Shown one piece after another: positions 9,084-49,290 of a stretch of 64,000 nt of DNA. Position numbers and translations under genes: made by a program. Each line of letters begins with the position of its first letter. The first letter of the stretch is position 1. This DNA comes from Glaucostegus cemiculus (Eukaryota). The notes below the pieces were generated by a model. That model did not search any database, was not told the DNA's origin, and saw only the letters and a program-made list of their open reading frames with translations. The stretch is from positions 930,001-994,000 of the forward strand of contig CDPCPM010000120.1 of the NCBI GenBank assembly GCA_976551045.1. The letters are read 5' to 3'.

Positions 9084-9160
9084 CATCCGTACCCATCAGA
9101 GGAGCAGAAGAAACAGTTAGCCCAAGACACGGGACTCACGATCCTACAAGTGAACAACTG
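9084..9160 (+). CDS. MEIS2: MEIS2 homeodomain exon (77 nt): [25 protein letters not shown](W)
   Basis: Acceptor ttttgtgcag|CATCCG and donor AACTG|gtgagt. Contains the TALE PYP loop. Too short to appear in the ORF track. Confidence 0.97.
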
Positions 9161-9884: not shown

Positions 9885-10142
9885 NNNNNNNNNNNNNNNN
9901 NNNNNNNNNNNNNNNNNNNNNNNNNNNNNNNNNNNNNNNNNNNNNNNNNNNNNNNNNNNNNNNNNNNNNNNNNNNNNNNNNNNNNNNNNNNNNNNNNNNN
10001 NNNNNNNNNNNNNNNNNNNNNNNNNNNNNNNNNNNNNNNNNNNNNNNNNNNNNNNNNNNNNNNNNNNNNNNNNNNNNNNNNNNNNNNNNNNNNNNNNNNN
10101 NNNNNNNNNNNNNNNNNNNNNNNNNNNNNNNNNNNNNNNNNN
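9885..10142. other. Assembly gap (258 N)
   Basis: Run of N. Confidence 1.
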
Positions 10143-41060: not shown

Positions 41061-43055
41061 AAAGCTAATGTCCCATCTAAAAGTTTTCATTGGAATATTC
41101 CAGTTGCAAAACTTCCTATAAAATCTGCACCTAAAATCTGCAGTGGGTGTTTGTTTTGACCTTTCTGTTTCTTTGCACATGACCTCCATTTAGATGTGCC
41201 TTCAAAGTCCATTGATTCCAGTCAAAAATATATCTGCAGCTACCCAGGTTGCACACAAACTTAATATTACTTTGTTCTGTACTATGATTCAGTTCGATGG
41301 CAAGTGTGAACATGGGGTAAACTGAATTCCGTTTGGATCTGGTAATCGTAACTGAATTGCTCTCATTCTGCACAGGGTCACTTTGTGCATTCTGACTGTG
41401 GAACAGATGTTTGTTTACTGATGATTTGATTTAATGATATCTGCACTGCTTGTTAAAAGGACCCTCGCCATTTCCCTGAAGAACATCTCTTTCTTCAGTT
41501 GCTTAGCTAGTTTTAATGCCTGAAGCAGCTTTTCAACTAGAGCTTAGGCAAGACAAGTAATTGTGTTGGGTGACATTTTTTGACAACAAGATAAAATGCA
41601 AATCTTTAGAGGATTCTTCCCTTCAATAATCAGTATATAGATAGAAAATATTTTATAACGCACCTTCTAAAACATTGGCAAGATTATTACAATTCAGTTA
41701 GAAGGTCCATCCTGAAATAAGAATGCTTACTTCAGAATAATAATAAGGTATTTGGCAATGACTATTTTGCATCAGAAATCTGTCATGGAATTGTATGTTT
41801 TTTTCTGGGCTCCTGGATCATTCTTGTTTTTTTCTCCCCATCCCCCAATTTCACAGCCATGAGACATTTGTTACATGCCATTCGCATGAGTTGTATTTCT
41901 TGCACTAAGTTGGACATAAAAGACAGTGGAGTAAGTTTGGCACCATTTCAAATGCAAACATTTGGCCCCTGCATAGAGATTGCTAACGTTTTAGATAGTA
42001 AGAAATATGAGGGAATTTTTCGGGGGGGGGGGTGGGGGGTTGTTGGTGGTGAGTTTGGGTCGGGAGGCATTGCTGCTAAATTAAAGCCAGACCTGTGACG
42101 ATTAATTTCAAATAGCTCTTAGGAAGTGATTTTTATCTGGCTTTTTGGGAAGAACAAGAGAGTGGCAATTTTCTGGCAACAGTGATAGACCGTCAAACTG
42201 TATCATAATTTGTCAAATCAGAAGCAGAATCCAAGGTTGTCACGATTTTTCCTTAACTGCAGCACTTTGGTGGTGCACAGGATGCACAATGATTGTCAAA
42301 CTTTTTTGCATAAGAATCTGCAACAATAGGTTCTCGAGAAAAGTATTAATTTTTAAAGCCCTTAATGGATTGGACTGGCATCCCATTACCATTTTAGGTC
42401 CTTTTCCACCTTTTCATTTCCCAGAACAACAAAATATAGAAGTGCAGATGTACCTTTCATCACAAAATCAAAAGTGTATGTGGAAAGAATTTGCCTACCT
42501 TCACTCACGTCTTTGTGTACCCCCATCCCTGATGGGCATTTGCCTTTTTTTCTGTGCCCTGGGTGTGGAAATCTCAGTTGAAAAGGTCACTGTTGCCAGT
42601 CGCTAACCTCCAAATGACCCCTTGACTTTACAGTCTAAAACTGCAGGAGCTGCGAAGGAGCAGGAGCCTTTCTGTACCAGCACTTATTTGCTGCTGTGGT
42701 GATAAAACTTCAGACAGCCTAATTGATGGGCTTGCTGACATAACAATACCTTGTGAAAGCAGAGTGGCAAAGCCTGGTCTTCATTTATGGACAGCTGGAA
42801 GGGGTGTTACAACCCCTTTCAGAAGAAAGCAAGCTAGTTGAAGCAATGAACTTTTACCATGTTTGTGCCTCTTGCCCAGACATTCCATTTTAAACACTAA
42901 ATATATTAAAATGGTTGACTGTAAGAGGACTTTAAATCAACAGATGACATAGTGGGCAGCTGATTCTTCTGTGCCTTTAACAAATTAAAATGAGGGAAAA
43001 GCAACTGTGTTTTCAAATTGAGGAGTAAAATCTACCCTTTTCCTGTTTGTCTTAG

Positions 43056-43114
43056 GTTCATTAATGCCAGGAGAAGAATAGTACAACCCATGATCGACCA
43101 GTCAAATCGAGCAG
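43056..43114 (+). CDS. MEIS2: MEIS2 exon (59 nt), homeodomain helix 3: (W)FINARRRIVQPMIDQSNRA
   Basis: Acceptor tgtcttag|GTTC. The first G completes the TG|G Trp codon. Ends at a non-canonical GC donor, CAG|gcaagt. Confidence 0.96.
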
Positions 43115-45175
43115 GCAAGTCTCAAGTAGTAAATGTATTCAAGTCCCGCAGGCACAAATCTTCATCAAGTTATTCATCAGGAGTTCCTTCACCTGGTAAA
43201 TAAACCCAGCAGCCAGGCATTTCCGGGAGAGCTAACAATCCAGAGTTCCAGTGCAGGGAGAAACCTCACTAACTGATGCCAACTGGAATTCCCACCCTCA
43301 CTTTCTCAAAGCTGCTTTTATTTCTTTTTAATAATGGTAATTGGGCAAATATCCTTGCACCACAAATAGCTTTGCTGAGTGGGTGCTGTTGCTGCAAAAT
43401 CACTGGTTGTCTCTCAGCCACTGATGCCTTTCCTTACTGCTCACAACTCCTGGGTGAATGCACTGTTATTATTGCCATTGCTGCTGTTTTTTTTTACTGT
43501 TAATGATAGCTATGGATCCCTTAAAATGATTACAGTTAAAGTCAACCGAAACATAATGCCCCAGTTAGTAATTCTAAAGTAAAATGTAAGCTTGAGTGTC
43601 AAGTAGTGTTCCCCATCATACATCTCGTTACTCTATTGTCACATTTGATGAGGGGAAGGAAATATACTCCCTAATTAACCCGTGTAAATTTTTCTTTATT
43701 TCATTTTATTAATCCTTGAGATAAAAACGTTTAATTTCAGTCTGATCATTTTTGTTTTAATTTGGCTTATACACAAAATTGAATCTGCAAGCATGTTGTG
43801 CAGACCATGGAGTTGTGTGCTTCTGCATTGGTTTGCCAGAACCTTTATTGAAGTCTTTTATTGTCACTCACACTGCTTTGATTTGATGTTGATTTGCACC
43901 CGCTGCTTTACTTCAATATGTAGAGTGCTTCTTATTTCTGTGAATTGTGTGCAACTTGTCAAACGTGCTTCTCGGGGATCAGAAGTGGTATTGTGGTGTG
44001 AACAGAACAGGATGGGCAGGAGCTGTGGCCCAAATTTCTGTGTCAGCCAGAGAGAAATTTGGTTTTACTTGTCAGGGGAGTACGAGTTAACCTCAGTGCT
44101 GCATGACAAGACTCAGTAAATTCAAGATAGTGTGAGAAAGTTTTCCTCTCTCACTCTGTGGAAGGCACTGACTCTAACTGGGATTTGGATCCACAGGTGC
44201 CTTCTGAGTACCTTGCCCAAGTGGGTTTCTTCATGCGTGAGAGGCATCGCAGTCAAACCCCATGCTTTCATTACCCAAAATCAACACACACATACACTCA
44301 AGAACAGATTATTGGAAAGAAGCTAGGACTGGTAGGCTTGGCTGATTTTTTTTTCAATTTTCCCCCTGTTTCCAAGCTCAGGAAAATTATTTTTAGTGCT
44401 CCTTCCTTTGGCTGAGGTGAGTGAACTCACCGCAAGCCACAGTTTCGAAAAGGAAAAGGTTGAAAAGGTGTAGGGGTAGGGACCTGCCATAGCATAATGG
44501 GCTGAATGGCCTTCCCTTTCCGCTGTGGACTTCCCTGATCCTATCAATCTGGGCTGTAAAGGTCGGACCCGTAGTACAGCATGCATTTAATAAGTTAAGG
44601 ATTTAAGGAACTGCCTGTGTAATTCATTTTTAATCATCATAAATTGCATTCTATTCATAACACTATTCTTAGTTTTATGTAATTTGATAGTATTGATCGA
44701 ATAAATCCATTAAATGTTAGGCTGGATGTCTTCATACTTAGAGTGCAATTAAAGAAGGTGTAGACAATAGTCACAGTTAATTATCAAGGGACAATCAGGG
44801 CACAGTGCCCGACTAAGTAATCTTTAATTTAAGAGACACTGACTGCATAAGCAGAGAAAATACCTTATTTTTGGACAAAATAAGTTTACGGATCTTCTAG
44901 GCACTGGGGAGTGGAGCTGCCCTTTGGAGCACTCCATTGTTTGCACTTTTGTGATATAAAGTTGCACCTTTGATATGCTTGTAGCTGCTGGGAACATTCA
45001 AATCTGGGGATACGGTGGGTTGCGGGGGTGATGGTTGATGGCTTAATTTATTTCTTTAATTCCGTTCAAGTTTCTTTTGTTCAACAACGTATTGCGTTTG
45101 CTGTTTCAGGAGTAACTGCTGATTGTTTGGTATGTCTTTTCTTTCTCCTCTGTGTCTACGTTTGACTACAATCAG

Positions 45176-45286
45176 GTTTTCTTCTTGATCCTTCAGTAAG
45201 CCAAGGAGCAGCGTACAGTCCAGAGGGCCAACCAATGGGGAGCTTTGTATTGGATGGTCAGCAACATATGGGAATTCGGCCTGCTG
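45176..45286 (+). CDS. MEIS2: MEIS2 exon with tandem acceptors at 45176 and 45197: (GFLLDPS)[30 protein letters not shown]
   Basis: Acceptors aatcag|GTTTT and cttcag|TAAGC lie 21 nt apart in the same phase. Donor CTG|gtaagc. Confidence 0.95.
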
Positions 45287-45551: not shown

Positions 45552-45647
<96 letters not shown>

Positions 45648-47916: not shown

Positions 47917-48203
47917 GTTTACAAGGCATGCCAGGGGACTATGTATCTCAGGGTGGTCCTATGGGTATGAGTATGGCACAGCCAAGTTACACTCCTCCCC
48001 AGATGACCCCACACCCTGCCCAGTTAAGACATGGACCCCCAATGCATTCCTATCTCCCAAGTCACCCACATCACCCGGCCATGATGATGCATGGAGGACC
48101 CCCGCCTCACCCTGGAATGCCAATGTCAGCACAGAGCCCCACAATGTTAAATCCTGTAGACCCCAGTGTCGGGGGACAGGTTATGGACATCCACGCCCAA
48201 TAG
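47917..48203 (+). CDS. MEIS2: MEIS2 terminal exon, long C-terminus GLQGMPGDYVSQGG...GGQVMDIHAQ*
   Basis: Acceptor cttttcag|GTTTA in phase 1, matching the 45286 donor. Corresponds to ORF 47889..48203. M/P/H-rich MEIS activation tail. Confidence 0.96.
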
Positions 48204-49290
48204 TATAAGGGAAAAAAAGAGAACCACAAATGTAAGACTTTAACCTTTGAACAGATGTTGACACTTAATGGAATTCCAGACGAGCTGTGATTTTGTTTTC
48301 TCTCAACGTCAACAGAGGACCAATGACAGGCCGAGGCTAATGTGAAGCCAAAGGCCTTCTTCACCTGAACTTATCTCCAATGTAAAGTTCCTCTGGAAAA
48401 GACTGAAAGATTTATTACTACTGTAGCATAAATATAGGAACTAAGTTAACTTGTACATTTCTGTTGATCACTCTATTTCTGTTGCTTCCAATAGTTTTTA
48501 GAAAGAAAGTTATCCTTTTTCCACACTATGTGTGTTGTTCCCAAAATGGTTGTCCTCGTACAGCAAATGGAGTCATGTTTCCGACCAGATTGCCCAAGTC
48601 CAGCCAAGCTGCCATAGAGGAAGAAGCTAAAGCGAAGATCTGTAAGACTTTTTTTGGATGTGGCACTAGGTGAAAAGTTTTAAGAATGCACTCACATACC
48701 TGATTTTACTGGATCGAATAGGACCTGCTCAATCCAAGTGAAGGGCCTGTGTCCAATTATGTTCTGGACTGACTCTTCTTCAAAGAGCTTGTTGATGGAA
48801 CACTGAAGATGAAGTAGCAGCTTCCTCCTATGGCTGTGCGTCACAGCATTGAGAAAATGTTGTCACACAAGCTATTCAGAATGCTCTTGGGTAGAATTTT
48901 CTTAATGAAATATCCTTTAGCTGGTCTTGCACCAAAAGGAAGACCTTTTTAAATGAACTCAAACTGCTTGGAACAAGCAATGGCAACAAAAAAATACTGT
49001 AACATACTTGGTACAGAGAGTTCAGTATATTAATTGTTACATGTTAGATATCTATGTGTTTACCTCAATGAGAAATAACGAATGTTTTGCTAGTATCAAA
49101 TCTGCTGTGGAATTGGTATTGTATGTCAATGAATTCCTTACTTTTATCAGCACGTGTCACTAGAAGAAAATGCTGTTTCCCTTGCGAGCTTTGTCAGATT
49201 ACATAAATACTTGTATGAGGACTGTGACGTATGTTTAAAAGGTGTTCAGTCACAAATGCCGTAATAAATATTTCATTTTTAGATTTTTTT
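48204..49290 (+). other. MEIS2: MEIS2 3' UTR (3' end approximate)
   Basis: Follows the TAG stop, is repeat-free, and ends just after AATAAA. Confidence 0.75.
49263..49268 (+). terminator. Polyadenylation signal AATAAA
   Basis: gtAATAAAtatttcatttttagattttttt: the hexamer is followed by a T-rich downstream element. Confidence 0.75.

Follow-up and report, generated by a model that had tools for sequence, protein, structure and literature searches.

We propose that the 81-nt segment directly behind the homeodomain of the MEIS2 gene in this stretch of 64,000 nucleotides (the window; the segment lies at 43115..43195, + strand) is the known Meis exon 10' (Irimia et al., 2011, Genome Biol Evol 3:551; PMC3140891), an identification to which we give a probability of about 0.85 and which rests on the features of the exon as the paper describes them. 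In the available portions of that paper, exon 10' is named, traced in 22 species, tested by RT-PCR and explained as an alternative splice site within exon 10, the upstream site being GC in 46% of genes. The segment in the window likewise ends at a downstream alternative 5' splice site of exon 10 and has a GC upstream site and a pre-bilaterian origin, and the agreement extends to its loss from Meis3 (locus L003 here) and to the hemichordate site that is 42 nt shorter (14 residues, proteins P0013 and P0113 here). Exon 10' itself is a real feature that has already been described. The preliminary description had treated the extension as a new cassette, which does not hold, as the exon was published in 2011 and RefSeq models carry the insert.

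The window contains the 3' part of a MEIS2 gene on the + strand. Exon 9 (9084..9160), which encodes the homeodomain as far as the beginning of helix 3, is placed by a motif scan, by its donor and by a spliced exon 9-to-10 contig in sequencing run X2. The constitutive part of exon 10 (43056..43114, acceptor AG at 43054-55) supplies the end of helix 3, and its peptide agrees at every position with the last 19 residues of 3k2a_A, a solved Meis2/Meis1 homeodomain chain. Exon 11 (45176..45286) has two acceptors, one at 45176 that adds a 21-nt extension and one at 45197 that gives the short form, in agreement with protein records of both forms and with the available text of PMC3140891. The coding parts of exon 12a (45589..45647, to the stop) and exon 12b (47917..48203) were found by motif scan, the latter also from its sequence, and a 3' UTR AATAAA with a U/GU-rich downstream element (49263..49268), probably a genuine poly(A) signal, served as a comparison site. 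Assignment to MEIS2 follows from the Meis2-type exons 9-12b with the 21-nt extension of exon 11 and from the best protein matches, which are Meis2a/Meis2; in the search of the same genome, the MEIS1-type and Meis3-like loci sit on other contigs. Intron 9 includes a run of N (9885-10142). Intron 10 measures 2.06 kb in the window versus ~28 kb in the MEIS1 paralogue (G000:C5:2628341-2656270; L002, L006 and L007), and Table 1 of PMC3140891 gives 1.1-1.8 kb for Meis1 intron 10 of human, mouse, chicken and fugu Meis1.1.

All of the signals placed by the preliminary description, namely the GC donor, the 81-nt open frame, the GT donor, the TAA and the AATAAA, are confirmed at their positions. The GC donor (43115..43122, +), whose intronic bases are also the first codons of the extension, is followed by a frame that is open through 43200 and yields the 29 residues reported before, the first 27 of which make up the basic, Ser-rich exon 10'. 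The GT donor (43196..43203, +) lies 81 nt past the GC donor in the same phase, read-through of it reaches the TAA at 43201-43203, and the AATAAA (43199..43204, +) overlaps both. Earlier called weak, the GC donor is not so by our scoring: it matches 9/11 positions of the U1 consensus, compared with 8/11 for the GT donor, and it is likely the major site. At the composition of this intron, 27 stop-free codons arise by chance with a probability of 0.21, so that the case for the extension depends on conservation. Donor, stop and hexamer do not overlap by three separate events but largely by one: with the donor and the TAA in place, the hexamer needs only one more A, and A follows AAATAA at 21/60 window sites.

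The required conservation is found within the same genome, where five loci match. The MEIS1-type locus (L002) shares with the window MEIS2 the GC donor, the 11-base GT donor and the stop, and likewise has an extension of 27 codons, but it lacks the AATAAA because the base after its stop is C. Between the window MEIS2 and this MEIS1, 63/81 nt of the extension are identical, compared with 31/81 in the next 81 nt, and this conservation is not due to chance. The suggestion in the preliminary description that MEIS1 isoforms have a similar tail is borne out. In the Meis3-like locus (L003) the donor is GT and the extension is missing, and the two PKNOX-like loci carry a basic patch of their own inside the exon. 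GC occupies the upstream donor in the window MEIS2, in the MEIS1 of this genome and in L009, a fish Meis1-type locus.

A protein search gave 187 relatives, 120 of which were listed and compared. Among the matches listed, the segment occurs in Meis1/Meis2 of sharks, rays, chimaera, gar, sturgeon, teleosts, frogs, turtles, birds and mammals, and also in hemichordates, molluscs, a tardigrade, nematodes, sea anemones (including Nematostella), corals and Hydra. The suggestion that the extension predates the MEIS1/MEIS2 duplication is therefore correct and even understated its age, which reaches back to the cnidarians. In 156 proteins, chosen by a pattern that fixes some columns by construction, Val6 is conserved in 151, Phe9 in 145, Lys10 in 147 and Lys15 in 143. 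A metagenome scan gave 80 loci, among them six coral loci, two invertebrate transcripts in spliced form and a single vertebrate-type locus with 10' (L009); 13 fell outside the pattern. In the six coral loci the segment lies inside continuous coding sequence and there is no upstream donor, because the Gly codon is GGA (GA at the place of the donor); 6/25 codons vary among them, with six synonymous and zero replacement changes. The hemichordate proteins P0013 and P0113, which differ by 14 residues at 10', come from Glandiceps and not from Saccoglossus.

The 27-residue insert is joined to exon 11 in 48/189 proteins (49 were flagged, of which P0090 is a false match), including Meis2 records of Chiloscyllium, Hypanus, Mobula, Pristis, turtles and birds. 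The same insert, followed by either exon 11 acceptor, is found in RefSeq isoforms of Meis2a and Meis1 (for example XP_043553936.1, our P0002, and XP_059811702.1, our P0124), which are predicted models rather than functional studies; the match to P0002 covers 96% of the window peptide at 93% identity. Insert position 7 (43132-43134) is Asn in the window and Thr in runs X1 and X2 and in most relatives. No Pfam family was found for the extension peptide. A wolf Meis2 model (P0022) joins an open but diverged 10' to exon 11, and gene calls P0010, P0017 and P0019 are similar; the wolf model contrasts with the available account in PMC3140891, which lists 10' as lost in mammalian Meis2.

As far as the accessible text of the 2011 paper goes, nematodes include 10' constitutively and amphioxus and hemichordates do so frequently, inclusion is very rare in the vertebrates tested by RT-PCR, the middle splice site of hemichordates is 42 nt shorter, and 10' was lost at least nine times, including from every Meis3. 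Meis2 lost it in zebrafish, Xenopus and mammals, and in chicken it is interrupted by stops, whereas the 10' of this glaucostegid Meis2 is intact. No cartilaginous fish is among the 22 species of the paper ('shark': 0 occurrences in its text), and poly(A) does not figure in it ('polyadenylation': 0 occurrences). Its available portions leave open both the function of 10' and why a segment as old as the cnidarians is rarely included and repeatedly lost; what the window adds is a lineage with 10' intact in both MEIS1 and MEIS2. A literature search that covered few subscription papers found no functional study of 10', no study of Meis isoforms in sharks or skates and no Meis2 intronic poly(A) site at this place, and the portions of PMC5630039 and PMC3342872 available add nothing on 10'.

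Transcript evidence comes from four sequencing runs, two of which (X1 and X2, from close relatives) gave contigs and two of which (X3 and X5) gave none. The runs are not recorded as RNA, and X1 and X2 nonetheless contain spliced contigs; the depth of a contig is a rough measure, and rare forms drop out of contigs, which show presence rather than absence. Run X1 has a 140-nt contig (depth 40.6) that tracks 10' before it departs from the window, and its 30-letter loose end equals the MEIS1 10' end of the present genome joined to MEIS1 exon 11, ~28 kb away. The length of this contig (about 30+81+29) suggests a splicing bubble. Run X2 contains the exon 9-exon 10 join (depth 215), the short-form MEIS1 junction (depth 7.9) and, for MEIS2, a contig (depth 19.7) that is unbranched from 43086 to beyond 43400. 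This read-through contig is 555 nt long and by its length would end near 43640, where there is no canonical hexamer. A MEIS2 junction was looked for by means of contig loose ends on 42950-43400. None of the four runs showed a MEIS2 10'-to-11 junction, X1 (to 43269, depth 4.8) and X2 giving MEIS2 read-through contigs only. Of the junction predicted from 43195 to exon 11, the MEIS1 equivalent is thus present in X1 and the MEIS2 form is in none of the four runs; the joining of 10' to exon 11 is observed for MEIS1 in a relative and not for MEIS2, and use of the 43196 donor in MEIS2 therefore rests on database gene models.

Constraint on the segment was examined in three pairs drawn from the window MEIS2, the MEIS1 of this genome and the fish locus L009, a small and underpowered sample in which dN/dS of 10' is 0.33, 0.48 and 0.59 (Fisher p 0.07, 0.11 and 0.26). 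Across these pairs, dN is 0 in exon 10 versus 0.18-0.30 in 10', and dS, at few sites, is lower in 10' (0.43-0.62) than in exon 10 (0.77-2.55). Protein-level constraint on 10' in vertebrates thus appears modest and is not significant, and the pattern would fit an exon of a minor form under relaxed protein constraint with some nucleotide constraint. The ratio is below 1 in 3/3 pairs, none of them significant, and the Meis2 models of two ray species are frameshifted. These models, from Mobula birostris and Narcine (P0023, P0151, P0153 and P0155), have the frameshift within 10', either through loss in the lineage or through assembly error.

These data bear on an alternative about function, one that leaves the identity of the segment as exon 10' untouched, namely that MEIS2 10' is a decaying relic, kept mainly by splicing or regulatory constraint at the nucleotide level, with an insert of little function there. 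The dS of 10' below that of exon 10 while dN climbs from 0 to 0.18-0.30 would be expected of such a relic, as would the frameshifted ray models and the Meis2 losses in zebrafish, Xenopus and mammals and the stops in chicken (available parts of PMC3140891). In addition, 10' is missing in 12/14 listed members of the P0002 cluster, including the longest-numbered X1 models of six species. Nevertheless, the frame, the length of 27 codons and the donor are retained in Meis2 records of shark, ray, sturgeon, turtle and bird, dN/dS is under 1 in every pair, and only 2/81 nt of 10' differ between run X2 and the window, compared with 11 listed substitutions and three indels in the next 196 nt, a difference that is not significant (p 0.16-0.36). 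We regard decay as a rather unlikely account of the exon in this gene, if one to be taken seriously.

A second alternative attributes a function to the stop and the AATAAA. In composite internal/terminal exons of the type known from the IgM heavy chain, a donor and a poly(A) site compete at the end of one exon, and exon 10', the end of which carries a poly(A) hexamer together with a 5' splice site, resembles these. U1 and the cleavage machinery would then compete for the overlapped donor and AATAAA, with a homeodomain protein that lacks the activation tail as the product of cleavage; in this lineage, U1 bound at 43196 would shield the AATAAA, and limiting U1 would permit cleavage and yield a homeodomain protein that carries the basic tail and lacks the activation domain. 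Such an exon agrees with the presence of hexamer and stop, unchanged, in both X1 and X2, with a stop that is common to the MEIS1 of this genome and to nine read-through gene calls among the listed matches, with the read-through contigs of both runs, and with 11 teleost Meis1 models (P0097, P0159, P0161 and P0181-P0188) that end in intron 10 past 10'. The tails of the teleost models are other, variable ones, however, and all nine stop-ending gene calls lack exon 9. Moreover, the hexamer is absent from both MEIS1 of this genome and L009 and amounts to one base beyond donor and stop, a 21/60 event in the window. The U/GU-rich downstream element is also missing: the 50 nt after 43204 have a T fraction of 0.16, only 3/51 window AATAAA sites being as low or lower, and no U/GU tetramer, versus a T fraction of 0.48 and seven downstream U/GU tetramers at the 49263 site, and there is no TGTA upstream of the hexamer. 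The contigs extend 65 nt (X1) and more than 196 nt (X2) beyond the hexamer with no poly(A) loose end, although contigs cannot show ends. None of 126 proteins that bear both the homeodomain and the extension, taken from the representatives of the clusters and at most 15 members of each, ends at this stop. The differences from the IgM-type exon, that is, no downstream element, no hexamer in the paralogue and no evidence of cleavage, make both the composite exon in general and the U1-dependent switch in this lineage improbable, the AATAAA is likely unused as a poly(A) signal, and the truncated, dominant-negative protein of the preliminary description is not supported. The teleost models that pass the 10' donor may reflect a terminal exon or an annotation artefact.

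A chance open frame in the intron with no biological meaning, for which the 0.21 probability of a frame this long could be cited, is refuted for practical purposes by the 63/81 nt identity to MEIS1 that ends at the GT donor, by conservation of the protein across the metazoans and by the spliced MEIS1 junction in run X1.

Taking the segment as exon 10', we suggest that it is the ancestral 3' part of exon 10, intact in this MEIS2 and probably included in a minor form through the 43196 donor. Judging from the coral GGA, the upstream donor was likely born in Ala-Gly-Lys-Ser codons as the Gly codon became GGC or GGT, which would explain the frequent GC at the upstream site, and its origin inside a coding segment would be the reason that two donors compete. 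The GC site is predicted to pair with U1 at least equally well and likely wins in most cases, with removal of the segment, and occasional use of the GT site would give a basic tail of 27 residues, predicted to be disordered, directly behind helix 3. In the P0002 structure model (mean pLDDT 52, alignment of 26 sequences), helix 3 ends at residue 345, which is the boundary of exon 10, and residues 346-372 have pLDDT under 50; none of the solved Meis structures reaches past exon 10. The stop and the AATAAA are most likely by-products of an A-rich donor, and read-through RNA is probably unspliced or intron-retaining, and would be a target of nonsense decay if its downstream introns were spliced.

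The most probable role of the tail, by analogy, is one like that of the C-terminal extension of PREP1 (PKNOX1), in which a patch of lysines that follows helix 3 and is unstructured increases DNA affinity ~2x and is required for cooperativity with PBX1 (available text of PMC5240567), and the 10' tail would most likely strengthen, through electrostatic contacts, the hold on DNA or on the PBX-DNA complex. Both are unstructured basic tails behind helix 3 of a TALE homeodomain, but that of the PREP1 type is constitutive in the two PKNOX-like loci here and differs in sequence and spacing, and the analogy is one of function only. The basic cluster of the insert is conserved among the pattern-picked proteins and could possibly act as an NLS, a role proposed before from the same residues, although a predicted NLS of Meis1 has already been placed within the homeodomain in the part of PMC13379096 available. 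Phosphorylation of the Ser-rich part, also proposed before, would be a further candidate role. The docking motifs considered for the hydrophobic core of the insert were PP1 RVxF and calcineurin PxIxIT. The insert fits neither consensus, and both readings were rejected.

Inclusion of 10' may differ between the MEIS1 and MEIS2 paralogues. Among shark and ray records, in a sample biased by the insert-bearing query, 10' is found in 27/28 of MEIS1-type and 13/26 of MEIS2-type. Together with the X1 contig, these records suggest that inclusion in shark and ray MEIS1 may be high, unlike in the bony vertebrates tested in 2011, and we put forward tentatively, at somewhat less than even odds, that MEIS1 in these fish still includes 10' as its major form and that inclusion in MEIS2 is reduced. 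If so, they would provide a vertebrate for testing the ancestral tail; the literature search, which covered few subscription papers, returned nothing on the level of 10' inclusion in shark or ray MEIS1. The value of the locus would rise only with a proven poly(A) switch or with high, regulated inclusion in sharks and rays. As a separate observation on the gene models, full-length shark and ray Meis1 models labelled isoform X1 (P0191-P0204 and P0223) all contain 10', and several Meis2 models with the same label are without it.
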